From sequence record MK903282.1: DNA of 64,000 nt; one strand, 5' to 3'. Below, piece after piece: positions 1-36,942 of this stretch. Positions within the stretch are counted from its first letter, which is position 1, and each line of letters begins with the position of its first letter. This DNA comes from Escherichia phage Mansfield. The notes under the pieces were generated by a model. The model was not told the origin of the DNA. It ran no database searches and saw nothing but the letters and a program-made list of their open reading frames with translations. Position numbers and translations under genes: made by a program.

Positions 1-175
1 TTCCAGCTTCTCTTCTAAATCGGATTGGCGACGTAAAACCCATGTTAAGTCGCGGTTGCCGACTTCCAATCCATTATAATCGCAAGATGGAACGTCAATT
101 TTGATGCTGCCACCAAAGGCCATTCCGCTGCCTTTAGTATATGCGTGGTGAATAGAATCATTTTTATTTGACATA
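1..175 (-). CDS. hypothetical protein (N-terminal part; ORF runs off the left edge of the window)
   Basis: Minus-strand frame starting ATG at 173-175 (MSNKNDSIHHAYTKGSGMAFGG...) stays open to position 1; absent from ORF track because truncated. Confidence 0.35.
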
Positions 176-247
176 TCATTACCTTTCATGAGGGTGATTA
201 ACTTAAATTATAATAAAGCCGCATAGCGCGGCATTCAAATCGGTTTG

Positions 248-496
248 TTAATTGTAACGATTGGATTCATCAATCGATACCAACTGTGCTGGGTCGCCGG
301 ATACGGTCGAGCCAACGATACCCATCTGCTGAAAGAACTCTGAATAAACTTCCTTCCAGTATTTACGCGCTGCTTTCTGAGCCTGTCCTTTGCGCTTGAA
401 GCTTTTACCTTGAAAGATGAAACGGTCGCTTGCCGCTCGATACTCCACCACACCTTCCAGCCATTGTAAGAATGCTACTGATTCATTCTGATTCAT
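248..496 (-). CDS. hypothetical protein
   Basis: 82-aa ORF in a tightly packed minus-strand gene string; no recognisable motif. Confidence 0.45.
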   Translation of the reverse strand: MNQNESVAFLQWLEGVVEYRAASDRFIFQGKSFKRKGQAQKAARKYWKEVYSEFFQQMGIVGSTVSGDPAQLVSIDESNRYN

Positions 497-503
497 GTTA
501 ACC

Positions 504-899
504 TCAATATTTTAATAAGAAAGCACCCAACCAACTTTCCTCAATCTCGCGCCCAGTAGCCACACGGTCGGTCTTTGCCATGGGTCTGGATTCGCCACAT
601 GGCAATCCGTCTTGTAGTTGTGTACTATTTCCAATTCTCACCATGACCTTTCCATCAGGGGCGATATAAGCGCGACAACCCATGATTTCGAGTCGTTGTA
701 GACACTGGCGAATCGTTTTCAGCCTTTCACCGGACCGGATAGAGCGCGGTCGCGACCGCTGACCGTTCTTATTCACTGTACGCTTAACGACAGGAATCTC
801 ATTGGTGCGTTGCGCTTTCGGTCGGTAGTAGGCTTCTTCTCCAGGAGTTGCGCCTGGCGTCAATTCGCGCTTGAGAGCCTTTTCAATATCGATGATCAT
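504..899 (-). CDS. hypothetical protein, basic (Arg/Lys-rich)
   Basis: 131-aa ORF, same strand and packing as neighbours; no recognisable catalytic motif. Confidence 0.45.
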   Translation of the reverse strand: MIIDIEKALKRELTPGATPGEEAYYRPKAQRTNEIPVVKRTVNKNGQRSRPRSIRSGERLKTIRQCLQRLEIMGCRAYIAPDGKVMVRIGNSTQLQDGLPCGESRPMAKTDRVATGREIEESWLGAFLLKY

Positions 900-902
900 G
901 AT

Positions 903-1001
903 TTATGCCGCTGCAGCGTAAACAATTGCATAAGCAATTCCAAATAGCGCGGCGATGCATACCGTGCCCCAAAGTGCAAAGCGTCGTGACTCTTTATCCA
1001 T
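903..1001 (-). CDS. small hydrophobic protein (32 aa), hypothetical
   Basis: Unlisted short ORF MDKESRRFALWGTVCIAALFGIAYAIVYAAAA filling the gap exactly between two minus-strand genes; single predicted TM helix. Confidence 0.3.
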   Translation of the reverse strand: MDKESRRFALWGTVCIAALFGIAYAIVYAAAA

Positions 1002-1289
1002 TTATTTATCCCCAACGTCCATGAAATTAAACACTAATTTTGCCATGTCATCTTGTGAAACGACACTGTAGTGTTTAGGCAAATTGCTTTCTGACAATAC
1101 CTTCTGGGCTTCTTCTGCCGTCTCAAACAAAGGAATGCACCAATTAACTGCGTCGCCAGAATCATTGCTATCAACTTGTTTCAAGAAAACCAAGCGGTTG
1201 TCTTCAGGATCAATTCCGCAAATCACGTATTTAGGCAATGCTTTTGCTTTTTGGGCCTTATCGATGTCTTCAAATTTCATTTCATTCAC
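1002..1289 (-). CDS. hypothetical protein
   Basis: 95-aa ORF with upstream GAGGTG-like RBS on the minus strand. Confidence 0.45.
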   Translation of the reverse strand: MNEMKFEDIDKAQKAKALPKYVICGIDPEDNRLVFLKQVDSNDSGDAVNWCIPLFETAEEAQKVLSESNLPKHYSVVSQDDMAKLVFNFMDVGDK

Positions 1290-1327
1290 CTCACTTGTTA
1301 ACGTATAATGAGTATAACTTAATAGAG

Positions 1328-1355
1328 CATAAAGTAAAGGCGCTTTTCAGCGCCT
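1328..1355 (-). terminator. putative intrinsic terminator downstream of the tail fiber gene
   Basis: Hairpin AGGCGC-ttttca-GCGCCT followed on the minus strand by UUACUUU. Confidence 0.35.
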
Positions 1356-1363
1356 TGAGTGAA

Positions 1364-3655
1364 TTATTTTGCTGCCTTTAGCGCGGCTATCTCTGCCTTC
1401 AAATCTTCAATTTGCTTATTGAGATACTGCACACAACCCATCAAGTCCATGACGATTGGGTTGTTGTCCACTGAAGGTCGGTCGCGCGTCTTCTCGCCTA
1501 TCTTATTGCCTTCCTCATCAAAAATATCCTCATAAGGCATTTCATGATGCTTGATGTATTGTGGTGCGATCACCTCCGCTTCTTCGGCAATAATCCCGAA
1601 TCTTACGCGCTCTTGCTCGTCATCCTTGTAGACAAAGTTCACTAGACGCTGTGAATTGATTCTGTCCATCGCTTCCTTTGCATCTGCATCAACGATGTCC
1701 CTTTTATATTCAAGACCGGACGTGCCTTGAAGCGCGATTGTTCCAGATGTTGAAGTCGGGAAGTCGAGAGTGATTTCACCAGTACGGTTGCCATCCTTGC
1801 GACGGAAGAATAAACGATAGTAGCGCGTACCGTTGGTGCCCAGCGCGGCTTCAAAAAACATCATACCGCCTACAACCGTGTCAGGGACTGTTCCGCCGCC
1901 GATGTAGTTTGGCTTCATCGAAAGTTGCGGGTACTGCCCATCAATGATTGAAACGCTGCCAGCAAATACTGCGTTTCCTTTGGAAGTTATCATCCCAGGG
2001 GCAGTAAAATCACCTCTTTCGTTAAAGTCATATACCGCTGTCAATCCGCTTGTTCGGTTATACACGTTTAAACGTGCATAATACGTCGCGCCAATCGCTG
2101 CGCGGATACGCCAACTCATTTGCGCTTCTTGAACGCCATTAACGTTGTAGCGTGAAATGATTTCGCCGCCGTCAGCAGTGGTGCCTGGGCCTGGCATAGC
2201 GGAGTCACCAGTGATCACACTCCAAGATGTATTCGCTGCAACAAACCCGCCAGATGCACGAATAACCCAGACGCCTACAAAGCAGTCAGGGCGCACCTTT
2301 GACGAGCGTCCGTAAGCGGCATTCGACCTGCTTGCGCTATAGTTGAATGTTCCGTATCTGGTTTCAGAAGAAGGCGTTGCAATATTTATTGCTTGGTTGT
2401 TTTGTGAAGAAAAAGAGAATGCACCATATCCATTGCCTGTTTGATATGTATACGCGGTGAAAGAGCCTGTTATGTCTGGGGCACCGTTTTCAAACACATC
2501 ACCTGCAGCAGATGATATTCCGCCGTCACCACGTCCGAACAATTCCTTAATTGAACCCGTCTGCACGCCGTTAAAATCAGGTACGCGAAATGTCGTCGTA
2601 CCGTTACCGGAAGAATAACGACCGCGTTTTTTCGAGTCTGCAAGCCAGTCAGCATCAGCAATAGGGGAAAGCATTTGTGCATACGCCCAAAGCTCAGGCC
2701 AGTCTGCACGGTTAAGTAATTGACCGTCCGCTACGACCTCGTACGGTTGGATATATGCACGACTATTTCGTAAGTGGAAGTCCCCAACGCCATAGTTCAT
2801 AACACCGTTCATGTTTGGCCCAACGGTGCCTGTATTTACTAAGTTTTCCACCCAACGCTTTGTCGCGGCATCATAATCGTTGACTGGGTCACCAGCAAGC
2901 GGCGTTGAACCTTGTGGGCGAATGTTTAACCATGCTTGAGCATTCTCTCCAGAGCCTGTGCCGCCCATGGAAGTCGGAACAACGCTCTGATCGGCCACAG
3001 GTCCGAATCCGAATGCATCTTTCATCCCCTGAATTGTGGTTTGGCCTGTTCCACCGTTCGATATTGGGATGATGCTCTGCTCACTGTAGATTGCTTTCCA
3101 AGGACTCCAACCAACAACTGGGTCATGAACTCGAATAAATTGAGAACCATTATTGTTGTATATGGTGTATATTTGTACGCATCCATCAGCGCCATTTGCA
3201 TAATTCTGCTTAACTTCCAGAACACCAGCAATTTGGGCTGGATAGTTTAGAGCAGGTGATGCATTGCTTGATCTGTCTTGATAATAATAACCAAACCAGG
3301 TGCCAGTCAGAGCATTGAGATTTATTCCAGATGGAATAGGCCCGAAATTTCTAACAGTATTGGTCAAAGATGCGGCAGTAGTACGAATTGAAAGTAAATC
3401 ACCAGCCGCCCATGCACGTGCTGCCGTACCTTCTTGTGCACGTTGAACGGTCAGGACGTTTCCAACCACGGCTGTTACTGTGACGATTTCGAATTGGAGG
3501 CCTGTTGCAGCGTCGACGATTGTCGCCACTACACGCTCGTTTGCGCCCAAAGTCGGAAAACCCGACCCTGAGCGAATTGTTATTGTGGTGTCTGAAGTCG
3601 TCGTTGGTTGAGCCAGCGCGACCTCAAAGTTGTTTTTGAATATTAGCCTTGGCAT
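1364..3655 (-). CDS. tail fiber / tail spike protein with C-terminal intramolecular chaperone (peptidase S74-like) domain
   Basis: 763 aa; Gly/Thr/Asn-rich body with repeated GGTG motifs; C-terminal region (LVNFVYKDDEQERVRFGIIAEEAEVIAPQY ... ending in a coiled coil) resembles the auto-cleaving chaperone domain of endosialidases and T5 L-shaped fiber. Confidence 0.7.
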   Translation of the reverse strand: MPRLIFKNNFEVALAQPTTTSDTTITIRSGSGFPTLGANERVVATIVDAATGLQFEIVTVTAVVGNVLTVQRAQEGTAARAWAAGDLLSIRTTAASLTNTVRNFGPIPSGINLNALTGTWFGYYYQDRSSNASPALNYPAQIAGVLEVKQNYANGADGCVQIYTIYNNNGSQFIRVHDPVVGWSPWKAIYSEQSIIPISNGGTGQTTIQGMKDAFGFGPVADQSVVPTSMGGTGSGENAQAWLNIRPQGSTPLAGDPVNDYDAATKRWVENLVNTGTVGPNMNGVMNYGVGDFHLRNSRAYIQPYEVVADGQLLNRADWPELWAYAQMLSPIADADWLADSKKRGRYSSGNGTTTFRVPDFNGVQTGSIKELFGRGDGGISSAAGDVFENGAPDITGSFTAYTYQTGNGYGAFSFSSQNNQAINIATPSSETRYGTFNYSASRSNAAYGRSSKVRPDCFVGVWVIRASGGFVAANTSWSVITGDSAMPGPGTTADGGEIISRYNVNGVQEAQMSWRIRAAIGATYYARLNVYNRTSGLTAVYDFNERGDFTAPGMITSKGNAVFAGSVSIIDGQYPQLSMKPNYIGGGTVPDTVVGGMMFFEAALGTNGTRYYRLFFRRKDGNRTGEITLDFPTSTSGTIALQGTSGLEYKRDIVDADAKEAMDRINSQRLVNFVYKDDEQERVRFGIIAEEAEVIAPQYIKHHEMPYEDIFDEEGNKIGEKTRDRPSVDNNPIVMDLMGCVQYLNKQIEDLKAEIAALKAAK

Positions 3656-3693
3656 TTTACGGTCCTCGTTTTGTCGACAACCGTATTATAACC

Positions 3694-4035
3694 TTAATTT
3701 CTTTTGAGAGGAATATGACGGTTGCTGTCATTATTTGGTTTAATAATGAGCATAAAAACGATTAGAAAGATGATGGCTGATATACTTAATTCAATCAGCG
3801 CGGCTTGAGATATGGATTGATCTTCATGATACTGCTTTTGCATTTCCGCTCTCTTTTGAGCGCAAACTTCAGGCGATATATAATCTCCTTTTGAGTTGCC
3901 ATAATAAATCTCGCCATTCTCAGAAATAAGCCTGCCGCAAATATCCGTATCGGCCTTTGCGCTTGACATCATAATAACGGTGCCGATGATAGCAGCAATT
4001 GTCCAAATTAGCAGTTGTGATAAAGTGTTGTTCAT
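3694..4035 (-). CDS. small membrane protein (N- and C-terminal hydrophobic segments)
   Basis: 113 aa; N-terminal signal/TM segment and C-terminal TM helix; directly downstream of the tail fiber gene. Confidence 0.45.
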   Translation of the reverse strand: MNNTLSQLLIWTIAAIIGTVIMMSSAKADTDICGRLISENGEIYYGNSKGDYISPEVCAQKRAEMQKQYHEDQSISQAALIELSISAIIFLIVFMLIIKPNNDSNRHIPLKRN

Positions 4036-4050
4036 AATAACCTCTTTAAA

Positions 4051-4078
4051 TTACCCTTCCCATGTCGGGAAGGGTGAA
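4051..4078 (-). terminator. stem-loop, possible terminator/attenuator
   Basis: Perfect inverted repeat CCCTTCCC-atgtc-GGGAAGGG; flanked by AT-rich sequence, U-tract weak. Confidence 0.25.
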
Positions 4079-4232
4079 TATTATTTTACGCGAAAGAATA
4101 AGCGCGTGCCACACAGCGAGTCCCAACGGCCCTCACCATCCCATATCGACCCAACACCAGCGGTGATTGGGCCAGCAGAATTGGCGGCATTGGCCCAGGC
4201 GAGTCGTTTCAGTTTCCAACTGCACCAACGAT

Positions 4233-4466
4233 TCACAGTTCACCTCCAGACTGCAAAACAAGTCCCGCATAGAGGATTGCTAGAGCTAAAGGCGCACCAC
4301 TTCCAGCCTCTCTATTCTCTTTGATTTGAAGAGTATCCTTAAGAAATTGCAACTGAACGTTGAATTCATTTTCAATTCCAAGCACTACAGATAATTCTTT
4401 TACAGAATCTGCATATGCCTTGTCTAGAACTTCTTTTGGTAATGTTAAAGTCAATTCACTTGCCAT
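4233..4466 (-). CDS. hypothetical protein
   Basis: ORF track 4233..4496; internal ATG at 4466 preceded by GGAG gives smaller overlap with the upstream gene. Confidence 0.35.
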   Translation of the reverse strand: MASELTLTLPKEVLDKAYADSVKELSVVLGIENEFNVQLQFLKDTLQIKENREAGSGAPLALAILYAGLVLQSGGEL

Positions 4467-4677
4467 TCTCTTTCCACTCCACAAATGTGCTGCCACTTGT
4501 TTCTCTATTTAGCAGGTATCTGCCGCGCATTCCATGAAGGCTGAATTCAACCGTCGATGGATTAGATTTTGAAAGCCACATGGCCTGACCGTCGAACGGT
4601 CCGCCAACGCATGTGTATTTAGCCTTTGGCTCACTCCTTTTGGGTCGCTTTGCCCGCTCTTTGATTGATAGTCTCAT
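4456..4677 (-). CDS. hypothetical protein
   Basis: 73-aa ORF, basic N-terminus; part of minus-strand gene string. Confidence 0.35.
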   Translation of the reverse strand: MRLSIKERAKRPKRSEPKAKYTCVGGPFDGQAMWLSKSNPSTVEFSLHGMRGRYLLNRETSGSTFVEWKENGK

Positions 4678-4892
4678 CAGTCTTCACCTTGAGATTCCAG
4701 ACAAGTAAGAACAAGCCACGTCATCGGAAGAATCAAAACCAGAGAAATAAGGGACCAGATGGACCAGCACAAGATGACAGACTTGAATGTGTGAACGTCG
4801 CCAAACACAGCAGTGAAACAAAATCCCATCACAAAAGCAAGCGTGGTGGAGTGGTTATCAATGGCTTTGATGGCGCGGTCGATGAGTTTCAT
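4677..4892 (-). CDS. small membrane protein (two predicted TM helices)
   Basis: 71 aa with two long hydrophobic segments (LAFVMGFCFTAVFG, ILCWSIWSLISLVLILPMTWLVL). Confidence 0.45.
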   Translation of the reverse strand: MKLIDRAIKAIDNHSTTLAFVMGFCFTAVFGDVHTFKSVILCWSIWSLISLVLILPMTWLVLTCLESQGED

Positions 4893-4981
4893 ATTACCTC
4901 CGGTTTTGAGTTAATATGATTATAACGCAGAGTTTCAGAAAGGCAAACTTTTTGTGAATTTATGCCGTCCATGGCAAATGA

Positions 4982-5212
4982 TTAGTGAGAAGACACGACT
5001 AATGTGCCGCTTCCTTTCGCGAAAATCTCAACACCTGGCGGGATTGTGACCGTGCCAACAACTGCGATGCCGATCAACTTGTCGTCTGCTTTTTCTTCGA
5101 AACAGATCTCTGCGGCACCGCCGCGAACTTGAATAAGTGCGCCTGATACGTTTTCAACAACAGAAAGAACGGAAGTGTAAGATGGAGTGAGTTGAATATT
5201 TACTAGGGCCAT
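4982..5212 (-). CDS. hypothetical protein
   Basis: 76-aa ORF; first gene of the minus-strand left-arm operon. Confidence 0.4.
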   Translation of the reverse strand: MALVNIQLTPSYTSVLSVVENVSGALIQVRGGAAEICFEEKADDKLIGIAVVGTVTIPPGVEIFAKGSGTLVVSSH

Positions 5213-5225
5213 GATTTACTCCTGA

Positions 5226-5253
5226 TAAAAAAATGGCCAGAAAGAATCTGGCC
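5226..5253 (-). terminator. hairpin plus U7 tract (terminator-like or 5' UTR attenuator) in the divergent intergenic region
   Basis: GGCCAG-aaagaat-CTGGCC followed on minus strand by UUUUUUU; lies between a candidate minus-strand promoter (TTGCTT-N17-TAAAAT, about 5296-5324) and the first minus-strand gene. Confidence 0.3.
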
Positions 5254-5330
5254 GAAAAGATCACCCTTTATCCACTACTAAGCTGGAATCACAATTTTAC
5301 TTGATATAGCTGTCTCAAGCAAACTATAAT

Positions 5331-6791
5331 ATGAATAAAATATTAACACATAATTGGAAAGTCATGTACCAGTTGAATCCTGCTTTAAGAGAAGTTTGGA
5401 AGACGAAAGCGCGATACAAAGTAATATACGGCGGTCGTGCATCTTCCAAATCGCATGATGCCGCTGGTTTTGCTATTTATTTGGCGGCAAACTTTAAATT
5501 AAAATTCCTTTGCGTTCGACAATTCCAGAACAAGATTTCTGAATCAGTATATACGCTATTAAAAGATAAGATAGAGATTTCTGATTTTAAAGACGAGTTC
5601 AACTTATTAAAGAACTCTATTGAACACAAAAGAACAAAATCTGAATTCTTATTTTACGGTATCGCACGCAACGTTGACGAAATCAAATCAACAGAAGGCG
5701 TTGATGTTCTTTGGCTTGAAGAAGCGCATGCACTGACTGAAGAACAATGGGACATTATTGAGCCGACCATTCGTAAGGAAGGGTCAGAAATATGGATCAT
5801 ATTTAACCCTGATGAAGAGGCCGATTTCGTCTACCAGAACTTTGTCATGCGACCGCCGAAGAATGCCATCGTTAAGAAGATCAACTGGCAAGACAACCCA
5901 TTTTTGTCACAAACAATGCTGGATGTTATTGCTGGCATGTATGAGCGCGACCCGAAAAAGGCAGAACACGTTTATGGCGGAGTACCGAAGACAGGCGGCG
6001 ACAAGTCGGTCATCAACCGTGCATTCGTCAAGGCCGCGCTAAACCTCCACAAACACCCTACGCTGGGATGGAGCTTGTCAGGGTCTAACCGTATAGGCTT
6101 TGACGTGGCGGACGACGGCGACGACTTAAACGCCACAGCATTTGTCACGGGCAACGTATTGCGCGGCATCAAGACATGGGAAGGTCTGGAAGATGAATTG
6201 CTTAAGTCCGCAAGCGGAGTTTGGAAAGACGCATTGACATTCGGCGCATCAATTACCTATGACGCAATCGGTGTTGGTGCATTTGCTGGTTCAAAATTTG
6301 ATGAGCTTAATGAGTATGCAATCCATGAAAATCCAACATTCCCAAGAATCGAATTTAATGCGTTCAACGCGCAAGGTGCTGTTGATGATCCTGATGATGT
6401 TTTCCTTGAGTTACCACACGTTGAAATACTCAATAAAGACCATTTCGCAAACATAAAAGCGCAAAAATGGACTGAGATTGCCGAACGATTCAGGAAGACA
6501 TATGAATATGCGACAGGGCAAGCCGTATATCCGACCGATGAGTTGATTTCCATCGACACAGACGGCATTCCAGAACTTGGGATTCCTGCTTGGTCTGCGG
6601 AAGAGATTGAGACGTTTCTTTTTGAGATGTCAGCGCCGCGCAAAGATACGTCTGTACTTGGCAAGTTCAAAGTTGAATCGAAAAAAGATATGGCAAAGCG
6701 TGGAGTCAAATCGCCTAACAAAGCGGACGCCGCAATCATGGCATTGATGAAACCAATTGTTGCAGCATCCGGCTTCTTCTCTAACCTTTAA
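5331..6791 (+). CDS. terminase large subunit
   Basis: 486 aa; N-terminal ATPase with Walker A-like YGGRASSKS and LWLEEAH; C-terminal nuclease-like acidic residues; position immediately upstream of portal. True start may be the downstream ATG at 5364. Confidence 0.85.
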   Translation: MNKILTHNWKVMYQLNPALREVWKTKARYKVIYGGRASSKSHDAAGFAIYLAANFKLKFLCVRQFQNKISESVYTLLKDKIEISDFKDEFNLLKNSIEHKRTKSEFLFYGIARNVDEIKSTEGVDVLWLEEAHALTEEQWDIIEPTIRKEGSEIWIIFNPDEEADFVYQNFVMRPPKNAIVKKINWQDNPFLSQTMLDVIAGMYERDPKKAEHVYGGVPKTGGDKSVINRAFVKAALNLHKHPTLGWSLSGSNRIGFDVADDGDDLNATAFVTGNVLRGIKTWEGLEDELLKSASGVWKDALTFGASITYDAIGVGAFAGSKFDELNEYAIHENPTFPRIEFNAFNAQGAVDDPDDVFLELPHVEILNKDHFANIKAQKWTEIAERFRKTYEYATGQAVYPTDELISIDTDGIPELGIPAWSAEEIETFLFEMSAPRKDTSVLGKFKVESKKDMAKRGVKSPNKADAAIMALMKPIVAASGFFSNL

Positions 6792-6794
6792 CAA

Positions 6795-7034
6795 CTAAAG
6801 CATTCCGTGCTGAAGGTCGAGTTTTCTTGCGGCAAATGACCTGGCACGGAATCGCTTACCCGCTCTTACTGCCTGTCGAATTTTCTTTTGCAAACACTTA
6901 CGGTCAAAATCGTTGCGGTCGACGGCTTCGAGTAAATCACGACGCAACGCACCCAGTGTCGACTTTTCGGAGACTTCAACGCCCAGCGCGGCTGCAACGT
7001 CTTTCAAAACATCGAGTTCGGTTAAAGTTCTCAT
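6795..7034 (-). CDS. hypothetical protein
   Basis: 79-aa ORF on the opposite strand between terminase and portal. Confidence 0.4.
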   Translation of the reverse strand: MRTLTELDVLKDVAAALGVEVSEKSTLGALRRDLLEAVDRNDFDRKCLQKKIRQAVRAGKRFRARSFAARKLDLQHGML

Positions 7035-7447
7035 TTGATAATCCCCTTGATGTCTGATTCTGCCATAAAGATTGGAGTGCCGCCGCCAGGAACAATCGAG
7101 CGCGTTACTTTGTCAAAAATATCGTTCTCTTCAACTTGAATACGATAAAATTTATTTTTGGATGAAGATGGGCACAATCCCATAAATTTGCCGATGCCGC
7201 GAACGCATTCATCTTCAAAGTATACTGTTTCACCTTGAATGGATTCGATGTTGTCTACTGGATAGACCTTGCGACCCAACAACCACTCATCTAAAGTCGC
7301 CTGCAAGACGTTTCGCGCATCTAAAATCCACGGGTCAATAGTAGCACCTTCGTATCGCGCAGCAGTAGCCTTTGCCAGTTCTTCATATTCGCATACGTTA
7401 ACGACTTCGCCGTTGTGCAAGACGACAAATACAATTGTTGTGCTCAT
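7031..7447 (-). CDS. hypothetical protein
   Basis: 138-aa ORF with AAAGGAG RBS; opposite strand between terminase and portal. Confidence 0.45.
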   Translation of the reverse strand: MSTTIVFVVLHNGEVVNVCEYEELAKATAARYEGATIDPWILDARNVLQATLDEWLLGRKVYPVDNIESIQGETVYFEDECVRGIGKFMGLCPSSSKNKFYRIQVEENDIFDKVTRSIVPGGGTPIFMAESDIKGIIK

Positions 7448-7542
7448 TTCAATCTCCTTTCGTTTGGTTAACTAAAATATAACTCAAAATGATACAAAAG
7501 CAAAATATTTTATGAACTATTTATGATCACCATACATATCAT

Positions 7543-7571
7543 TTGCTTACAAACACATGAATATTTATAAT
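7543..7571 (+). promoter_or_regulatory. sigma70-like promoter upstream of portal gene
   Basis: TTGCTT-N17-TATAAT read directly from sequence. Confidence 0.4.
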
Positions 7572-7609
7572 ATAGATTGATTCCCTTTCACTGTCAGGTG
7601 GCGTTAACA

Positions 7610-9986: not shown

Positions 9987-10838
9987 ATGGCTTTTAAAGC
10001 TTCGAAAAAACGTGAACGCCGCTCACCCGATAGAATCGGGCGCGGCAGTCCGATAATCCCGTCAAACGCTATTGCGATGGCCTACCGTCGTGAGATGAAA
10101 GGTCTTTGCTATGCGATGATTGATGACTATCAAGCAGGCATTTCAGAATGGCTTGATAAGAAGCAGGTGCAGAAGTTTTTTGCGCAAGACTCTGCTGATT
10201 CTACATTCCAGACTCTCATGAAACGGCTGCAGCTGAAATGGGCAAAGGCGTTTGCACGTGTTGGGTCGAAGATTGCCGCTGATTTTATCAAATCGGTCGA
10301 AAAGGGTGCCACTTCTGCTACATTCGCAAGCCTTAAGTCCGCAGGCATAGAAGCGCCAAAGGCCACATATAACAAATTCGTTGAGAACACTCTTAGAACA
10401 AGCGAGACGTTTAACACGACTCTAGTGACTAAGGTCGGCGAGGATATTCACAACAGAGTGTACGAAGCAGTCATGCTTTCGCTGACTTCGCCCGACCCAG
10501 CCCAGCAAGGAACGTCAGGCATTCAGGCGGCGTTGCGAAACGTAAAACACTTCTCTGCAAAGAGGGTCGACTTGATCGCTAAAGACCAGACAAGCAAATT
10601 GTATTGCGTTCTAAGCGATGAAAGGATGCGCCAGAATGGAGTCGAAGAATTTGAGTGGGCGCACTCAGGAGCAGGAAAGGAGCCGCGAATCTCTCATGAA
10701 CACGTCGACGGAATGAGATTCAAACTTGACGACAAGCGACTATGGGAAGTTGACGGCGAATTGAAGTTCAAAAAGGGTGACATCGGTCCTCCTGGATGGG
10801 CAATACACTGCAAGTGCAGAAAAATACCAATCATTTGA
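9987..10838 (+). CDS. head morphogenesis protein (Mu gpF / SPP1 gp7-like minor head protein)
   Basis: Position directly after portal; C-terminal conserved HEHVDG...GWAIHCKCRK region typical of MuF-like proteins; ATG at 9987 abuts portal stop. Confidence 0.65.
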   Translation: MAFKASKKRERRSPDRIGRGSPIIPSNAIAMAYRREMKGLCYAMIDDYQAGISEWLDKKQVQKFFAQDSADSTFQTLMKRLQLKWAKAFARVGSKIAADFIKSVEKGATSATFASLKSAGIEAPKATYNKFVENTLRTSETFNTTLVTKVGEDIHNRVYEAVMLSLTSPDPAQQGTSGIQAALRNVKHFSAKRVDLIAKDQTSKLYCVLSDERMRQNGVEEFEWAHSGAGKEPRISHEHVDGMRFKLDDKRLWEVDGELKFKKGDIGPPGWAIHCKCRKIPII

Positions 10839-10845
10839 GGTCATT

Positions 10846-11766
10846 ATGACGATACCAATCAGCACGTTTCCTCTATCTGGACAAACGCCAGTATTGCCTG
10901 CTGTATATGCTAACGGTTTGGCGATTGTTTCAGATTTTACATCCGACAAAAACCTGATTGTTCCATTGAGTCCGCCATTGGCGTCTGGATACAATTCAGT
11001 TGGTCAATTCTTTATGATCGGTAATGACGGCGATTCTACCAGCAAGCCGAATCTGACACTTTCAGTTCCCAAAATGAACATAACAGACGTGCAGACTGGT
11101 TTAACTGCGTCTACAATCACCATCGCTTTTGGCGAAGCAGTGATTATAGGCATGGAGTCTGGAGGGTCCAAGAATGCTGTCGCCGTTAAGGTAGTCAAAT
11201 CCAGCGGCAATCAATACACGTTACCAGCGGCAACGGCTTCTGTTCTCGGCGGCGTCAAAATAGGAAGTGGCATAAGCGTTGCAGGTGACGGTACAATTAG
11301 CGTGACTCAATACTCGTTACCGATTGCATCAGCATCAACCTTAGGTGGCGTAAAGGTAGGCACGACATTATCAATTGATGGTTCTGGAGTTCTTAATATT
11401 CCGTCAAGCACTGTGCAAAACGCAAGCAATAGTGTAAGCAATCCTCCGACAACTCTGGTGAATCTGGCAACATTAAACCTGCCTGCAGGGAAATGGCTTG
11501 TGACGGCAAGTCAGTTGACTGTCGCGACAGCAGGAATTCAAGCGAATACCGGAATTACAGTCAAATTGTCAACGAGCAATTCAGATATTACTGATGATGC
11601 ATTTACGATGTCAGCTGGCATTCGGGCTGCAGGTCGTTTCGGCGGCAATATTCCAACAAAGATAATTACTCTTGCCGCGCCTGGCAATGTGTATCTAAAC
11701 TATCAATGCACAGATGCGTTGACGTCTACCGTTTACGGACAGATCACCGCAATTAAGTTGAACTAA
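10846..11766 (+). CDS. virion structural protein with internal tandem repeats (fiber-like)
   Basis: ATG at 10846 with GAGGT RBS; repeats ATASVLGGVKIGSGISVAGDGTISVT and ASASTLGGVKVGTTLSIDGSGVLNI. Confidence 0.45.
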   Translation: MTIPISTFPLSGQTPVLPAVYANGLAIVSDFTSDKNLIVPLSPPLASGYNSVGQFFMIGNDGDSTSKPNLTLSVPKMNITDVQTGLTASTITIAFGEAVIIGMESGGSKNAVAVKVVKSSGNQYTLPAATASVLGGVKIGSGISVAGDGTISVTQYSLPIASASTLGGVKVGTTLSIDGSGVLNIPSSTVQNASNSVSNPPTTLVNLATLNLPAGKWLVTASQLTVATAGIQANTGITVKLSTSNSDITDDAFTMSAGIRAAGRFGGNIPTKIITLAAPGNVYLNYQCTDALTSTVYGQITAIKLN

Positions 11767-31448: not shown

Positions 31449-33236
31449 ATGCCAACACTTATTAACAGACCTTTCGCGCAAAGCGGTGATGTATCCGTGG
31501 TGCCGGATGCAAGCCCAAGCGGTTATGTGAACTTCCAGCGCGGCTACACACCTGACTATGCGCTTGCTCTGGAGGCTGGAAACGTCGCCGCGAAAGCTGT
31601 TGAGCGCGAATCGATGAACTGGTTGCTGAATTTGATTACAGACAACCTTATGTTTATTCAAGACCATGGCGCTCAACAATATTTCTCTTCTGACTTGAAG
31701 CCGGATGGATACCCGAAAAATGCCATTGTTGTCAGCAACTCTGGAACGCCTTCAGCGCCTGAGTGGCGCATCTTTCAAAGCGTGGTCGACGGCAACACAA
31801 GCGCCGTACCAGCTAACGGAGAAACGGAATCTTGGCAGGAATTAACACTGCCCAGCGAAGCGCGAAAATACATTCCGATGCCTGCTGGCGGCGATGCGCA
31901 AAACCCGTACTTTGTTCGCGGATTGATTTCAAGCTTTGTGGACTTCGATAATATCACGACTTCCACAACTATCGTCATTCAATCAGATGCAGTCGCCGCT
32001 CTTTGCTCTAACATCCCGAATGCGGTTGGCGCAACAAAGGTTGCAGGTCGACTGCAGGTCTGCGCTTGGCAGGTCGATGCGCAAACGTTTGCCTTGCAGC
32101 AATATACATCAATGAATGGCTATTTGTTTACTCGCTCTTACACTTCTGGTGCTTGGAGTGCTTGGATTCAAAACGCAACCATTCAAGATGTGCAAATCGG
32201 AACGCCAAACCTTGCATCTGGTAAAGGCGCGCAAGATATAATCCTCACCGTTCCAGCAGGGTATTCATGGCCACCTTCTGCGGGTAGCCGTTTAACCATC
32301 GTCAATGATGTGACTACTACCGGACCTGTCACCGTGACCATTGGTGCGAACAAGGTTGCCGTTCTTGGATTCGACGGCGGCGAGTTACCAGCTGGCGCTA
32401 TCGTAGGTTTGTTGCCATTCACCATCATTTATGACGGCACCGTGTGGCGTCTCCTTCAGGCGTTTGGCGCGGCGCAAATCGGCGTTGACGCTACTGAGCC
32501 GCAGCAGTTTGTGACCAAAAGACAGCTTGATGCGCTTGCTGAAAAGTTGATCACCATGGGTGATGTGTTCGAAGTCGGTGAGACTCGATTCCTGACAAAC
32601 GGGACCAACCCAAACACCAAACTGGGTGCTTACGGTCAGGTATGGACACGACTGCCTGATAACATGGTGATTCGCACGTCCGGCACGGCACGGAACGGGC
32701 TTGCAACTGGCGGCGCGGACTCTGTCACCCTTACCGCCGCCATGCTTCCTCTCCACAATCACAGTGTGAACATTACCACACGACAAAGTGGCCCATGGTC
32801 CAATACCACTGGAGACGCAGGCAATCACAATCACACAGGGGATACAAGCCAAAACGGTGCTCACGTGCACGGAATGGACACTGCAGGCAACCACCACCAT
32901 GACAGCAGCTGGGGTGAAGCGAATACACACGATGCGCGGTATGGTGTGTATGATAATACGCGCAACAACTTCGGAAGTCGCAAAGGCGGCGACTGGGATA
33001 ACTACAAATACAACACTTCAACTAATGGCAACCACGTCCACAATATTCAATCTTCTGGGTCACACACCCATGGGTTGAATATAAATTACGCTGGCAATCA
33101 CAGCCACAGTTATACCCTTCCCGCTCACACTCACGATGTGGTCGGTAACACTGGCAATGCAGGGCAGTCGGTGCCAACGGCTGTTGCGACTTTGCCGCGA
33201 TACGTTGTTTTGAATGGCTGGTACAGAAGCGCATAA
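31449..33236 (+). CDS. tail fiber (receptor-binding) protein with histidine-rich HxH repeat tip
   Basis: ATG 31449 with GAGGA RBS; C-terminal run of HxH motifs (NHNHTG, AHVHG, NHHHD, NHVHN, SHTHG, NHSHS, AHTHD) like metal-binding needle tips of T4-type fibers. Confidence 0.6.
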   Translation: MPTLINRPFAQSGDVSVVPDASPSGYVNFQRGYTPDYALALEAGNVAAKAVERESMNWLLNLITDNLMFIQDHGAQQYFSSDLKPDGYPKNAIVVSNSGTPSAPEWRIFQSVVDGNTSAVPANGETESWQELTLPSEARKYIPMPAGGDAQNPYFVRGLISSFVDFDNITTSTTIVIQSDAVAALCSNIPNAVGATKVAGRLQVCAWQVDAQTFALQQYTSMNGYLFTRSYTSGAWSAWIQNATIQDVQIGTPNLASGKGAQDIILTVPAGYSWPPSAGSRLTIVNDVTTTGPVTVTIGANKVAVLGFDGGELPAGAIVGLLPFTIIYDGTVWRLLQAFGAAQIGVDATEPQQFVTKRQLDALAEKLITMGDVFEVGETRFLTNGTNPNTKLGAYGQVWTRLPDNMVIRTSGTARNGLATGGADSVTLTAAMLPLHNHSVNITTRQSGPWSNTTGDAGNHNHTGDTSQNGAHVHGMDTAGNHHHDSSWGEANTHDARYGVYDNTRNNFGSRKGGDWDNYKYNTSTNGNHVHNIQSSGSHTHGLNINYAGNHSHSYTLPAHTHDVVGNTGNAGQSVPTAVATLPRYVVLNGWYRSA

Positions 33237-33244
33237 GGTGATTT

Positions 33245-33889
33245 ATGATTAACGCAAACGTAATATCTAAAGGGACCGGATGCAGCATGGATGTTGCAGA
33301 GAAATGGGTGGACCCTTTCAAGCAGGCTTGTGAGCACTACGGAATCAAAAGCAAGAGTGCCATCGCGGCATTCCTTGCAAACGTAGGAGTAGAAACGGGC
33401 AGCTTGAAGACCTTTGTGGAAAATCTCAACTACTCTGCACAGGGTCTTGCCAATACATGGCCTAGTCGTTACAGCGTCAACGGTCGTGCTGGAAGCGCCC
33501 CGAACTCATTGGCCCTGTCGATTGCCCGTAAACCTGTGGAAATCGCCAATAATACATATGCAAACCGCATGGGAAACGGTTCGGTAGCGTCTGGTGACGG
33601 TTGGAAGTACCGTGGCCGTGGTGCCATTCAGTTGACTGGCAAAGCAAACTATGCGGAATATACGCGTCAATCAGGCTATGATGCATTGAATAACCCCGAC
33701 ATTTTGACTGAGCCGAAATACATCGCTGACAGCGCGGCATGGTTCTTCAAGAATAGTGGTTGTATTCCTCTTGCTGACGCAGGTAATTTTGATTCAACCG
33801 TTAAGCGGATTAACGGGGCCGCGCCGAACGCAGCAAACCACGGTGAGTTGCGAAGAAAGCGTTACAAGGATGCATTAGCAGTTATGTAA
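33245..33889 (+). CDS. endolysin, glycoside hydrolase family 19 (chitinase-like lysozyme)
   Basis: IAAFLANVGVETGSL and YRGRGAIQLTGKANYAEY match GH19 endolysin signature regions. Confidence 0.8.
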   Translation: MINANVISKGTGCSMDVAEKWVDPFKQACEHYGIKSKSAIAAFLANVGVETGSLKTFVENLNYSAQGLANTWPSRYSVNGRAGSAPNSLALSIARKPVEIANNTYANRMGNGSVASGDGWKYRGRGAIQLTGKANYAEYTRQSGYDALNNPDILTEPKYIADSAAWFFKNSGCIPLADAGNFDSTVKRINGAAPNAANHGELRRKRYKDALAVM

Positions 33890-33895
33890 GAAAAA

Positions 33896-33922
33896 GGCCC
33901 ATATGGGCCTTTGTTTATTTTA
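33896..33922. terminator. bidirectional intrinsic terminator between convergent genes
   Basis: GGCCC-atat-GGGCC flanked by A5 upstream and TTTGTTTATTTT downstream. Confidence 0.55.
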
Positions 33923-34145
33923 CGGCTTCAACTTGGACGGGCGGAGCGGAACTTGTATCAATGTCTGGCAAGTCGAAGTAATACCCCGCCATACCAATCA
34001 CACCTACAATCGCGGCCCGTGCCACCTTGTTGCTAATTGACTCCCCAATAAGCTTTACCAACAGGGATAAGATTTGAGACGTCAAAGCCTTTTTCAGCCT
34101 TTTGTTTTCTTCCAAATCTTTCTGCATAACTACCACCCATGTCAA
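33915..34145 (-). CDS. small membrane protein (single TM), possible holin-like or accessory protein
   Basis: 76 aa; hydrophobic segment AAIVGVIGMAGYYF; ATGA overlap with upstream gene. Confidence 0.4.
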   Translation of the reverse strand: MTWVVVMQKDLEENKRLKKALTSQILSLLVKLIGESISNKVARAAIVGVIGMAGYYFDLPDIDTSSAPPVQVEAVK

Positions 34146-34684
34146 CGCACTTCCTGTGTCTTAACATTACCTGAAGCATCTCTCAAGGGCAGTGGATAGT
34201 AGGCCATTTGGTAGTCTGATACGCCTTCAATGTGATAAAACACGATTACGTCTTTGCTGTTGATGAGCATGTTAACGACATCTGATTTATCTTCTGGAGT
34301 GAGTATTAGTGCGCCGCCTGTCCTGCTGTCTACTGCAACAGGGTATGTCTTGTCGACAAGGCCGCTGTCCAATGTATTATACCTGACAACGATTTCAGGG
34401 GCATCAACTTTTGCCATTGACATTCCGAACACAAACGACACGACCTGCCGACCGCGATCATTCATTACGCACATCTTTTCTTTGTCAAATCTTTCTTTTA
34501 TTACGTCGTATTTATTCCAGCAGAACTCAAAGGATTGACCATTGTTGAAATATCTTGTAAGAACTTTTGCACTTCCATTTGGCGGCGTAAACATATTTTC
34601 AGCCGCTGCAGCCTTGGTGAAGAATATAACTGTCAGCATAGCCATGATGATGATCAAAACAATCTTTAATTTGTTCGCTTTCAT
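34142..34684 (-). CDS. secreted/periplasmic protein with N-terminal signal peptide
   Basis: 180 aa; MKANKLKIVLIIIMAMLTVIFFTKAAAAE signal-peptide-like N-terminus; strong AAAAGGTGA RBS. Confidence 0.5.
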   Translation of the reverse strand: MKANKLKIVLIIIMAMLTVIFFTKAAAAENMFTPPNGSAKVLTRYFNNGQSFEFCWNKYDVIKERFDKEKMCVMNDRGRQVVSFVFGMSMAKVDAPEIVVRYNTLDSGLVDKTYPVAVDSRTGGALILTPEDKSDVVNMLINSKDVIVFYHIEGVSDYQMAYYPLPLRDASGNVKTQEVR

Positions 34685-35837: not shown

Positions 35838-36427
35838 TCGCGACCCTCATTCATTACTTGTTCCATTGCGTAGGCATAAGCCTGATCAGTCGATTTGATA
35901 AAAGTTCCGTTATACATCACGCCTTTACGGTCCTTGATGTCTTCATAGGCGGCTTGAGCGCAATCAGACAGTCGAAGTCCATAATCATGCGCTACGCCGG
36001 AAAGATAATCGACTGCGGCCATGATGGTGACATCAATATCCATACTCTGATTTTTAGCAATGGCGTCACCAAGCCGTCCGAGAGTCTTTGCTAAGCGAAG
36101 GATAAACGAGTGAGGGTGGGCACCTTTGTCAGCGCAACCGCCGCCGTTGACATCTTCGATTTTTGCACCATTTTGCGCAGCAAGAATAGTTAACACAACA
36201 AGGCAATCGCCGATGTCATCCTTGATTGCGGCTTGTAAATCACAGATGGCCTGCTCTGTATATCCGATTTCAGGGTCAAAGAACACAAGGTCATGGAGTT
36301 GATCAACGTGGTCGGTCAACTCCCCAAACTCGCTAATAAGCTTCGGGTATTGGTCTTTAAGACCGCAACCTTTGATGATGTTACGGTCAGAAGCCCACTG
36401 GCGAATGTTTGCATAAATCTGGTTCAT
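35834..36427 (-). CDS. mazG: MazG-like nucleoside triphosphate pyrophosphohydrolase
   Basis: 197 aa; all-alpha NTP-PPase motifs EFGELTDH and DIGDCLVVL, second degenerate repeat. Confidence 0.55.
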   Translation of the reverse strand: MNQIYANIRQWASDRNIIKGCGLKDQYPKLISEFGELTDHVDQLHDLVFFDPEIGYTEQAICDLQAAIKDDIGDCLVVLTILAAQNGAKIEDVNGGGCADKGAHPHSFILRLAKTLGRLGDAIAKNQSMDIDVTIMAAVDYLSGVAHDYGLRLSDCAQAAYEDIKDRKGVMYNGTFIKSTDQAYAYAMEQVMNEGRE

Positions 36428-36942
36428 TTATTTTCCTTTGATGCGTTGAATTGATCGATTTTAATTTTAGCCTGATTATAAGTATCAATCAAGCTATTAA
36501 CCTTCTCTTTTAATCTGTTTGTTTCTGCGGCGAACTGAACAAGAAATCGGACATCCTCTTCTGATAGTCCACAGTTTCCTTCTGGGATAGAGAGGCGTCC
36601 AGTGGTCGCAGAGTCGGGCACACTCCTGAGTAATTCACGGGAGCAGCTGAGTTGCTCGCGCAACTTGATATTCCCAGACTTGTAACGAGCAATAGTGTCA
36701 TCAGCAACCAGTTGCGCTTCCTGGCGACCCTTCTCATATGCCGATGCCGATTCAACCTGTAAAGATGCAATTTGCTCTTCGAGTGCATTTATCTTGTCCT
36801 TACGCTCATTAAGCGATGTCAGATATTGATTATCCTTGGCCAGTGATGCGTTGGTTTGCTGAAGGTCTTCAACGTATGATCCAGCGGCGAACGCGCCAAC
36901 AAGGGCCAGAATCTTCAGAAGCGGTACAATTCTTTCTATCAT
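36424..36942 (-). CDS. i-spanin (Rz-like) lysis protein
   Basis: 172 aa; N-terminal TM helix LLKILALVGAFAAGSYV followed by long charged coiled coil; contains an embedded lipoprotein ORF in another frame. Confidence 0.5.
   Translation of the reverse strand: MIERIVPLLKILALVGAFAAGSYVEDLQQTNASLAKDNQYLTSLNERKDKINALEEQIASLQVESASAYEKGRQEAQLVADDTIARYKSGNIKLREQLSCSRELLRSVPDSATTGRLSIPEGNCGLSEEDVRFLVQFAAETNRLKEKVNSLIDTYNQAKIKIDQFNASKENK
36510..36737 (-). CDS. o-spanin (Rz1-like outer-membrane lipoprotein), embedded within i-spanin gene
   Basis: Embedded frame MRRVARKRNWLLMTLLLVTSLGISSC with lipobox-like ISSC, Pro-containing mature region; start chosen at internal Met of track ORF 36510..36788. Confidence 0.4.
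   Translation of the reverse strand: MRRVARKRNWLLMTLLLVTSLGISSCASNSAAPVNYSGVCPTLRPLDASLSQKETVDYQKRMSDFLFSSPQKQTD

Follow-up and report, generated by a model that had tools for sequence, protein, structure and literature searches.

At the left end of the window, by which we mean the whole 64,000-nucleotide stretch of Escherichia phage Mansfield analyzed here (MK903282.1), a tail fiber gene lies apart from the other tail genes and next to several small genes, two of which encode predicted membrane proteins. The locus thus raises the question of which part of it serves host range: the fiber together with its small neighbors, as a sequence-only reading of this DNA had proposed, or some part of the fiber gene itself.

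The fiber locus and its place in the genome

The window very probably represents a genome of Wifcevirus, a genus of E. coli myoviruses with genomes of roughly 68 kb, and its minus-strand ORF 1364..3655 the variable receptor-binding tail fiber of that genus. Nucleotide identity to phages WFH, ECML-117 and ECO71P1 is 94–96% with identical gene order, and the order of genes around the fiber is kept in nine relatives. The features of the locus and the distant landmarks are as follows.

1337..1356, minus strand: terminator-like hairpin AAGGCGCTGAAAAGCGCCTT, 7 nt after the fiber stop codon; consensus match only
1364..3655, minus strand: fiber gene, 763 aa, ATG start; full length 82.3 kDa, predicted mature form 68.7 kDa
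3694..4035, minus strand: ORF of the 113-aa membrane protein
4051..4077, no strand assigned: GC-rich hairpin in the gap separating the 113-aa gene from the 51-aa ORF; consensus-type prediction
4081..4236, minus strand: 51-aa ORF, conserved, non-membrane, between the two small membrane-protein genes
4233..4496, minus strand: 77/87-aa ORF, likewise conserved, non-membrane and between those genes
4456..4677, minus strand: 73-aa ORF, likewise conserved, non-membrane and between those genes
4677..4892, minus strand: ORF of the 71-aa membrane protein
4919..4946, minus strand: sigma-70-like promoter candidate TTGCCT-16-TATAAT, 10 of 12 consensus matches; consensus match only
18042, 25243 and 27422: sheath, baseplate hub and wedge of the tail module
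31449..33236: second fiber, eight HxH motifs
33245..33889: endolysin
36424..36942: spanins, separate from the endolysin

The three minus-strand ORFs of 763, 113 and 71 aa have exactly the coordinates given by the sequence-only reading. With the hub at 25243 and the second fiber at 31449, the fiber gene is separated from the former by at least 21.6 kb and from the latter by 27.8 kb, which bears out both the claimed separation of more than 20 kb from the tail and baseplate genes and the presence of a second, HxH-rich fiber type. The claim that the 113-aa and 71-aa membrane proteins follow the fiber stands as to their membrane character and fails as to their position, since both are encoded upstream of it: on the coding strand the order is 71-, 73-, 77-, 51- and 113-aa genes and then the fiber, so that the small genes precede it in transcription, the 113-aa gene ending 38 nt before the fiber start.

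The promoter candidate heads this leftward string, with the 71-aa gene as the first after it, and the terminator-like hairpin closes it. The stem of the latter is invariant in nine phages, its loop differing in one, and the WFC record annotates a terminator at the equivalent position. The hairpin at 4051..4077 keeps an unchanging 8-bp stem (CCCTTCCC/GGGAAGGG) around a variable loop. As all these genes lie on the same strand within one promoter-to-terminator string, the small genes are probably co-transcribed with the fiber.

Identity and domain architecture of the fiber

The fiber protein matches PHROG 6921, "tail fiber protein", over aa 23–763 (E=7e-193), and its orthologs include Bas99_0109 (Gp114 of the respective paper), WFC gp013, PI34_gp24 and vBEco4M7_27. 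With 890 database homologs of the fiber at E<=1e-10, and with pN/pS ratios of 0.05 for the 113-aa and 0.08 for the 71-aa protein that reflect strong purifying selection on both, these ORFs are not chance ones. For a Wifcevirus ortholog, the published description is of a T-shaped fiber whose RBD1 is Gp12-like and RBD2 T5-like and which includes an intramolecular chaperone, along with a conserved second fiber carrying HxH motifs and the full dependence of phages Bas98–101 on the O16 O-antigen (Humolli et al. 2025, PMC11990801). The kind of fiber has therefore been known for the genus since 2025, and the window carries a new allele of it. Its architecture is resolved into the following parts, all on the minus strand.

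aa 1–100, 3356..3655: N-terminal anchor, genus-conserved, presumed baseplate attachment
aa 105–192, 3080..3343: R-pyocin-type knob, hypervariable
aa 201–360, 2576..3055: shaft and collar/gp12-like core of RBD1, conserved
aa 361–440, 2336..2575: variable part of RBD1, 18–70% identity to relatives, 32 clusters at 70% in 65 homologs
aa 441–480, 2216..2335: linker VWVIRASGGFVAANTSWSV, conserved, single cluster
aa 481–640, 1736..2215: distal tip RBD2, closest to T5-like Salmonella phage SP3 and Kuravirus Paul
aa 646–763, 1367..1720: Peptidase_S74 intramolecular chaperone, predicted cut before Ser646 (codon 1718..1720), Lys651 at 1703..1705

Among nine Wifceviruses the anchor is 98–100% identical over aa 1–80 and 75–92% identical over aa 81–120; its mean identity in 65 homologs is 94%, its pN/pS is 0.06, and aa 4–99 match the N-terminus of the fiber chain 8jov_1 (E=2.8e-7). 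The knob matches that of R-type pyocin fibers by both sequence profile and fold. The next segment, aa 201–360, is 85–100% identical within the genus, and its part from aa 241 on is 75–92% identical to T5-like LtfA/LtfB and Dhillonvirus fibers and 88–100% identical to the Bas99 fiber, whose RBD1 is described as Gp12-like. The Pfam Collar match at aa 347–363 scores 15.7 bits, below the cut-off of 24, in a region with pLDDT <50 in the monomer model. Across all relatives, T5-like, Dhillonvirus and Kuravirus fibers among them, the linker is 68–82% identical. The T shape and the T5-like character of RBD2 would carry over to the window's fiber from published multimer models of a 57%-identical homolog. 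The variable patches at aa 401–440 and 561–640 are unlike those of every phage with a known receptor.

The SP13 record calls the orthologous protein "endo-N-acetylneuraminidase", which would make the fiber an enzymatic tailspike. This reading is hardly credible, as only the C-terminal chaperone matches an endosialidase (3gw6), no catalytic domain family was detected in the protein, and the remaining matches are fiber modules (pyocin knob, collar, LtfA). A match to 6eu4 spans just 149 residues of a low-confidence model, and Humolli et al. 2025 (PMC11990801) class such proteins as fibers, not as enzymatic tailspikes.

The C-terminal chaperone and its fate in virions

The proposal of an S74-type chaperone at the fiber's C-terminus was confirmed by the domain search: Pfam PF13884 (Peptidase_S74) matches aa 650–700 at 31.3 bits, above the gathering cut-off of 22 (E=2.5e-7, covering profile positions 5–56 of 58), and further profile matches are to the MyRF ICA, the GA-1 gp12 chaperone and 8jov_1. 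The chaperone fold was matched as well and ends in a long C-terminal helix able to form a trimeric coiled coil. The Ser-Lys dyad, set beforehand as the test that could refute this assignment, occupies the domain's N-terminal edge as S646-G-L-E-Y-K651, the two residues lying five apart, and it is invariant in 65 divergent homologs, in 12 representatives of divergent classes and across chaperone sequences that fall into at least nine classes. Ser646 coincides in alignment with the first residue of the released GA-1 chaperone fragment (3gud_A), and 8jov_1 and 6f45 have their SD..K motifs at the same place. From these alignments we infer that the fiber may cleave itself before Ser646. The 21 residues preceding the predicted cut (aa 625–645) read TGEITLDFPTSTSGTIALQGT.

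Virion mass spectrometry is available in published tables for two relatives of the window's phage, vB_Eco4M-7 and ECML-117, both analyzed as CsCl-purified virions in the same study. The tail fiber was expected to be a virion component, and its ortholog is the top-scoring protein in vB_Eco4M-7 virions and is also detected in those of ECML-117. On the release of the chaperone the two data sets conflict. In vB_Eco4M-7, 6 of 34 fiber peptides and 498 of ~2013 PSMs (about 25%) fall inside the chaperone, after the predicted cleavage residue Ser671, as would be the case if the S74 domain folded the tip but stayed on the virion, uncleaved or held non-covalently. In the ECML-117 table none of nine chaperone tryptic peptides searched for occurs, though a peptide ending at aa 669, eight residues before the site at Ser677, is present. 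Carry-over is possible in the vB_Eco4M-7 preparation, in which non-structural proteins, a DNA helicase for one, were also detected; the invariance of the Ser and Lys would argue for catalysis, and the window's chaperone belongs to another sequence class than that of vB_Eco4M-7. Retention of the chaperone on the virion is considered improbable, and release by cleavage would be the preferred reading.

Recombination within the fiber gene

In comparisons with relatives, nucleotide identity drops only at 1397..~3450, within the fiber gene, and the flanks, including both small membrane-protein genes, stay above 90% nearly throughout. The variable unit thus begins near codon 70 and ends 33 nt short of the fiber stop, with a sharp 3′ boundary. 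The 65 fiber homologs display 57 different module combinations, in which the knob and RBD1 assort freely and each of the 21 RBD2 clusters pairs with one chaperone cluster only. A stretch of the fiber, aa 236–761, matches LtfA of phage DT57C (E=3.5e-225), and the modules are shared with siphoviruses, both T5-like and Dhillonvirus, and with Kuravirus podoviruses. Recombination inside the fiber gene exchanges modules between conserved linkers, namely aa 201–360, aa 441–480 and the last 11 codons with the terminator. It is the distal part of the fiber gene itself that forms the host-range unit; in DT57C, switching of O-antigen specificity by the homologous C-terminal region has been demonstrated by recombination.

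The wider unit of the sequence-only reading, a host-range cassette of the fiber with accessory or exclusion proteins, taken here as one mobile unit whose membrane proteins would act as allele-specific accessory or superinfection-exclusion factors, draws on the adjacency and common strand of the genes, with 38 nt between the 113-aa gene and the fiber start, on the predicted inner-membrane location of both proteins, and on Dhillonvirus JLBYU37, in which a "putative super-infection exclusion protein" is annotated beside the fiber gene. The comparison of the locus among relatives speaks against it, since the small genes are constant and the variability is confined to the fiber gene. No co-variation is seen: the 113-aa protein is 95–99% identical in all 28 Wifcevirus records, whereas fibers in records covering the query essentially in full are only 55–71% identical. 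Moreover, the module donors (T5-like phages, Dhillonvirus, Kuravirus) are devoid of the small genes, and the small proteins match no exclusion or defense family. A cassette of this kind is very improbable, and exchange within the fiber gene is the reading retained here.

The small membrane proteins

Both the 113-aa and the 71-aa gene belong to the conserved core and show no variation in step with the fiber. The 71-aa gene is 91–99% identical in all relatives, relatives of its protein being found only at 76–94% identity; because both small proteins are conserved whatever the fiber allele, they lie outside the variable unit. The 113-aa protein is hydrophobic at aa 3–27, a segment ending in AKA, and again at aa 74–103, ahead of a basic tail. 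The predicted layout is a signal or TM helix at the N-terminus and a TM helix toward the C-terminus, separated by ~45 periplasmic aa that include two Cys; the ortholog's entry in the vB_Eco4M-7 record carries the remark "transmembrane domain and signal peptide found with Phobius". In the 71-aa protein, two hydrophobic segments (aa 17–33 and 36–67) are predicted TM helices. Searches of 5.8e9 and 1.84e9 proteins yielded no homolog of either outside the genus, and Pfam, PHROGs, NCBIfam and PADLOC gave no significant match to exclusion, defense, immunity, lysis or fiber-assembly families. For the 71-aa protein nothing beyond weak matches below threshold appeared (YijD/DUF1422, KwaA), and for the 113-aa protein no family or fold match. 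The 113-aa protein is absent from the vB_Eco4M-7 virion table and, as PI34_25, from that of ECML-117; the 71-aa protein was seen in neither.

One of the two might be the holin or antiholin still missing from the phage's gene list, in which case lysis timing would be coupled to a late structural gene through the leftward string. Neither the 50 kb examined of the curated Bas99 genome nor the fiber locus has an annotated holin; the endolysin carries neither a signal nor a SAR sequence and therefore needs one, and the separately encoded spanins imply a dispersed arrangement of lysis genes in this genus. Within the window only these two conserved small proteins have two strong hydrophobic segments, and virion mass spectrometry of the two relatives picked up neither, which fits a lysis role too. 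On the other hand, Pfam, PHROGs and NCBIfam returned no holin family, the tail of the 71-aa protein is acidic (ESQGED) where holins are usually basic, and the periplasmic stretch, two Cys and signal-peptidase-like AKA site of the 113-aa protein are atypical for holins. The genes also lie about 29 kb from the endolysin, with the spanins not nearby either, and other candidates adjoin the endolysin at 33915..34145 and 34142..34684. A holin role is thus rather unlikely. Our best guess, weakly held, is that the small proteins may act in the inner membrane of the infected cell, in superinfection exclusion or lysis control.

A model of fiber assembly and host recognition

By homology, three fiber chains would trimerize, and the anchor (aa 1–100) would dock the fiber on the baseplate. 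The knob (aa 105–192), RBD1 (aa ~300–440) and RBD2 (aa 481–640) would be presented as exchangeable modules, which may recognize a variable surface glycan, most probably the O-antigen. The S74 chaperone (aa 646–763) would drive trimer folding of its cognate tip and then cut itself off before Ser646 by means of Ser646 and Lys651, leaving the 68.7-kDa mature fiber.

Comparison with known systems

With the S74 family (K1F endosialidase 3GW6, GA-1 gp12 3GUD, MyRF ICA 7DC3) the window's chaperone shares Pfam membership, the S-x4-K dyad, the fold and the C-terminal coiled-coil helix, but its motif is S-G-L-E-Y-K instead of the usual S-D-x-x-x-K. Unlike the R-type pyocin fiber (6CL5, 6CL6, 6CT8), in which tandem knobs precede a C-terminal foot, the window's fiber has a single, hypervariable knob near its N-terminus, beside the anchor. 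The tip and chaperone of pb1, the L-shaped tail fiber of phage T5 (4UW7/4UW8), were matched in sequence by neither the fiber protein nor its profile; the structural match to 4UW8 comes from a low-confidence monomer model and is to be read as such.

The closest system is Gp114 of phage ManiWeber/Bas99 (Bas99_0109; PMC11990801), an ortholog likewise placed and oriented, with the leftward small genes on one side and the terminase on the other. The anchor is identical or nearly so, aa 201–360 fall within the genus-wide range given above, both proteins end in an S74 chaperone, and both phages carry the conserved HxH second fiber. Overall identity is nevertheless only 57%, and the knob, RBD1 loops, RBD2 and chaperone fall into other sequence clusters, the Bas99 chaperone being 28–45% identical. 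The receptor of Bas99 is the O16 O-antigen.

LtfA of DT57C (PDB 8HQZ chain d; Golomidova 2016; Ayala 2023) differs in its N-terminal attachment to a siphovirus tail, where it forms a lasso within the LtfC ring, in its length of 1076 aa and in carrying LtfB as a branch; its counterparts of the patches at aa 401–440 and 561–600 are only 22–30% identical, and the part homologous to the window's fiber is unresolved in the 8HQZ structure. Yet aa 236–761 of the window's fiber align with LtfA 541–1074 at 65.7% identity by tblastn, and the cleavage motif TSG(L/I)EYK is the same. For LtfA it has been shown experimentally that this C-terminal region sets O-antigen specificity.

Genomic setting of the fibre gene

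The variable receptor-binding tail fibre of phage Mansfield and two small membrane-like proteins were found exactly where they had been placed from the sequence alone:

1364..3655, minus strand: 763-aa tail fibre with a C-terminal Peptidase_S74 chaperone
3694..4035, minus strand: 113-aa protein
4677..4892, minus strand: 71-aa protein

Over its full length the fibre matches PHROG 6921 ‘tail fiber protein’ (E=7e-193), with Pfam Peptidase_S74 at aa 650-700 (31.3 bits versus a gathering score of 22), and strong hydrophobic segments bear out the membrane-like character of both small proteins. Transcription of all of them runs along the minus strand, which puts the 113-aa and 71-aa genes upstream of the fibre rather than following it as had been described, and three further conserved ORFs (51, 77/87 and 73 aa) separate them. 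Megablast of window positions 1-8000 matched 39 phage records, the top matches belonging to the genus Wifcevirus, myoviruses of ~66-72 kb (WFH, ECO71P1, ECML-117, Ro157lw, FEC19, WFC and Bas98-101; 88-96% identity, same gene order). Terminal repeats of ~3.7 kb are present in WFC and WFH, and in their linear records the orthologous fibre gene sits 5.6-8.0 kb from the left end, so that the term ‘left arm’ is fair. The tail module comprises:

18042: sheath
25243: hub
27422: wedge
31449 (ATG) to 33236: second fibre
33245: endolysin

With the module spanning sheath to endolysin, a distance of at least 21.6 kb separates the fibre gene from those of the baseplate, remote from the tail module as had been proposed, and the second fibre, with eight HxH motifs, is indeed of the HxH type. 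The head module contains the gene of a third fibrous protein (10777..11766, plus strand), which PHROGs match weakly through repeats of head fibres and tail fibres; its presumed orthologue by gene position and size only, vB_Eco4M-7_38, is among the top-scoring virion proteins, and the product may be a head fibre.

Host-range variation is confined to the fibre gene

In a nucleotide profile of eight relatives, the flanks are >90% identical over nearly all of their sequence and the collapse of identity is confined to ~1397..3450. The 3' boundary of the variable block is sharp, as conservation returns 33 nt before the stop (codons EAEIAALKAAK) and continues through the hairpin beyond it, which places the variable unit within the fibre gene. 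No phage-collection record exceeds 71% identity to the fibre, and public assemblies hold one identical protein together with relatives at 77-83% identity; judged from these sequence comparisons, curated phage genomes had lacked this allele, but sequence space had not. In practice, Wifcevirus host range is set at this gene, and several genus members are candidates for E. coli O157 biocontrol.

Modular architecture of the fibre

The fibre resolves into conserved and variable segments:

aa 1-100: anchor; aa 1-80 are 98-100% and aa 81-120 75-92% identical among nine Wifceviruses
aa 105-192: pyocin-type knob
aa 201-360: conserved shaft and collar-like core, 85-100% identity within the genus
aa 361-440: variable part of RBD1, 18-70% identity
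aa 441-480: conserved linker, kept in all relatives
aa 481-640: variable distal tip (RBD2), nearest to T5-like Salmonella phage SP3 (60-82%) and Kuravirus Paul (57-88%)
aa 646-763: intramolecular chaperone

Within the core, where a Pfam Collar match stays below threshold, aa 241-360 are 75-92% identical to T5-like DT57C LtfA and LtfB, to SP3 and to a Dhillonvirus fibre. The match to LtfA extends over fibre aa 236-761 (E=3.5e-225); the LtfA structure resolves the N-terminus only. The full-length AF2 monomer has a mean pLDDT of 56, its anchor and shaft/RBD1 region being unusable; the chaperone region is modelled confidently (pLDDT 75-92), with a terminal helix at aa 731-762. A solved fibre, PDB 8jov chain 1 (439 aa, 18 chains), has both anchor and S74 chaperone in common with the Wifcevirus fibre (E=2.8e-7, its N-terminus matching fibre aa 4-99, and E=1.6e-13, respectively), and would serve as a structural template for anchor docking; a literature search for 8JOV found no paper. 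An endosialidase reading, taken from the annotation of SP13, was discarded, no catalytic domain match being found.

The knob forms 25 sequence clusters among 65 homologues, with 93-94% conservation in the segments on either side of it. Knob and RBD1 loops combine freely with all other modules, giving 57 combinations in the 65 sequences. One could see in the knob, which adjoins the baseplate anchor, a third module for receptor binding or host range, exchanged on its own and not belonging to a conserved ‘attachment domain’; separately, the genus-restricted small membrane proteins could include a novel exclusion factor or the holin that is missing. We regard either proposal as rather unlikely. 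If true, the reading of the knob would yield a fibre with three specificity modules.

The distal tip and its chaperone behave differently, in that each of the 21 RBD2 clusters (21/21, in the same 65 homologues) is paired with one chaperone cluster only, as expected of a dedicated tip-folding chaperone. The mapped module boundaries and conserved linkers mark sites for designed fibre swaps, and the exclusive pairing suggests that the tip and its chaperone class should be moved together.

The chaperone and its predicted release

The absence of a Ser-Lys dyad had been named beforehand as grounds for rejecting a self-cleaving chaperone. The dyad is present: S646 and K651 (S-G-L-E-Y-K) are invariant in all 65 homologues, whose chaperone regions otherwise split into at least nine divergent classes. 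A twelve-class chaperone profile matches the MyRF ICA (E=1.6e-14), the C-terminus of 8jov_1, S16 gp37 (6f45) and the chaperone of GA-1 gp12, of which the crystallised fragment starts at the residue aligned with S646. Two peptides of the fibre frame the predicted cleavage:

aa 625-645: TGEITLDFPTSTSGTIALQGT, semi-tryptic, ending at the predicted cleavage site before Ser646
across the predicted cleavage site: TGEITLDFPTSTSGTIALQGTSGLEYK

CsCl-purified virions of two relatives, vB_Eco4M-7 and ECML-117, have been analysed by MS (Necel et al. 2020, PMC7048862). The orthologous fibre, encoded at 1684..4023 in vB_Eco4M-7 and at 1583..3940 in ECML-117, was the top-scoring virion protein of vB_Eco4M-7 (34 peptides, 80% coverage) and was found in ECML-117 with 18 peptides (PMC7048862); the fibre is clearly a virion protein. 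Mapping of the published peptides places 6 peptides and 498 of ~2013 PSMs of vB_Eco4M-7 beyond the predicted cleavage at Ser671, whereas the published MS of ECML-117 contains a peptide ending at residue 669 but not one of the nine tryptic peptides located past Ser677. Release of the chaperone is supported in ECML-117 and contradicted in vB_Eco4M-7, a conflict between two relatives within one MS study; for the chaperone class of the Mansfield fibre it is a prediction.

The small membrane proteins are not part of a host-range unit

The sequence-only reading had likened the layout of the fibre and the membrane proteins to a host-range cassette with accessory or exclusion proteins. Its key test, co-variation, failed: the 113-aa protein is 95-99% identical in 28/28 Wifcevirus records (including WFH, where it is unannotated), whatever fibre is carried. 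The 71-aa gene shows 91-99% nucleotide identity, and with pN/pS of 0.05 (113-aa gene) and 0.08 (71-aa gene) both are under strong purifying selection. Virion MS of vB_Eco4M-7 and of ECML-117 revealed orthologues of neither. The neighbouring membrane proteins are thus not part of the host-range unit, which removes a tempting but wrong annotation.

A word-indexed search of 5.8e9 proteins returned only Wifcevirus orthologues of both small proteins, as did a full HMMER scan of 1.84e9 representatives for the 113-aa protein. Nothing significant was found for the small ORFs in Pfam, PHROGs, NCBIfam or PADLOC, where DUF1422/YijD and KwaA were weak, TM-driven matches only, and the AF2 model of the 113-aa protein (pLDDT 64) had no Foldseek match in BFVD at E<=0.001. 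The lysis genes are scattered:

33245..33889, plus strand: endolysin without signal or SAR sequence
33915..34684, minus strand: two ORFs converging on the endolysin, one of 76 aa and one of 180 aa that bears a signal
36424..36942, minus strand: i-spanin with embedded o-spanin (36510..36788; candidate lipobox ISSC, read by eye)

The spanins lie among replication genes, 2.5 kb from the endolysin. Annotation of the examined Bas99 regions shows no holin, the endolysin has neither signal nor SAR sequence and the spanins are elsewhere, so the small membrane proteins may act in lysis or in exclusion of a generic kind.

Predicted expression elements

Consensus matches delineate the following elements around the fibre:

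4946..4919, minus strand: sigma-70-like site preceding the 71-aa gene
4077..4051, minus strand: hairpin preceding the 113-aa gene, with an invariant 8-bp GC stem (CCCTTCCC/GGGAAGGG)
3690..3685, minus strand: perfect TATAAT 29 nt before the fibre ATG, invariant in nine phages, with a poor -35 element and a wider motif that is not repeated in the window
1356..1337, minus strand: terminator-like hairpin after the fibre stop, its stem invariant and its loop different in one phage

The hairpin at 4077..4051, located between the stop of the 51-aa ORF and the 113-aa ribosome-binding site, has four loop sequences among nine phages; it may serve in attenuation, in RNA processing or in stabilising the RNA. 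Eight relatives are 94-100% identical over 3450..3800, which takes in the 3' half of the 113-aa gene and the first ~70 fibre codons. This stretch is more conserved than neighbouring genes, and in its 113-aa part few synonymous sites have changed. It may act as an arm for recombination or contain a regulatory element, the perfect TATAAT lying inside it. The invariant AAGGTTATAATAC upstream of the fibre was dismissed as a recurring promoter motif, its 2 matches in the window versus 0.96 expected showing no enrichment.

Within 5301..5364 (plus strand), the strongest sigma-70-like site of the region (TTGATA-18-TATAAT, 11/12 matches) ends at 5330, directly before the ATG at 5331 of the longest terminase ORF (486 aa). 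Given this adjacency, a start equivalent to 5364 (475 aa, as in WFH and Bas99) is more likely.

Variable and conserved neighbours

Between the terminase and the 71-aa gene, a 76-aa ORF (4982..5212, minus strand) constitutes an insertion/deletion, present in the window, ECML-117, TH32 and vB_Eco4M-7 and absent from WFH, Bas99, ECO71P1, Ro157lw, SP13 and WFC. On one side it is flanked by a terminator-like hairpin (5253..5235), on the other by the promoter-like site (4946..4919). CsCl-purified virions of vB_Eco4M-7 and ECML-117 yield its orthologues in good measure (390 and 49 PSMs, respectively), so the product may be an accessory protein of the virion.

A 95-aa gene (1002..1289, minus strand) that directly follows the terminator of the fibre gene is variable in the genus (pN/pS 0.19) and missing or replaced in ECO71P1 and ECML-117; its vB_Eco4M-7 orthologue has 89 PSMs in virion MS. 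WFH and Ro157lw carry an extra 210-nt gene around 900..1289, and WFH also a 99-nt gene. Co-variation of the 95-aa gene with the fibre tip was rejected, the window allele being nearest to WFH, Bas99 and WFC, whose chaperone class differs. The terminase and portal genes, both on the plus strand, enclose two minus-strand genes of 79 and 138 aa (6795..7447) that all of the genus conserves.

Relation to known fibres

Much of this architecture is established. Humolli et al. 2025 (PMC11990801) described a T-shaped genus fibre in which a Gp12-like RBD1 is combined with a T5-like RBD2 and a chaperone, and reported that its modules have spread horizontally among Wifcevirus, Tequintavirus and Gordonclarkvirinae. 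The same paper covers the conserved second fibre with its HxH motifs and shows that Bas98-101 depend on O-antigen. The S74 domain is already noted in the records of WFC and vB_Eco4M-7. Added here are the exact module boundaries, the dyad test, the tip-chaperone pairing, the hypervariable knob and the negative result for the neighbouring genes. The observation on the Mansfield fibre holds but is unremarkable: the fibre is a new allele of a type already known, and the current understanding of phage fibres stays unchanged.
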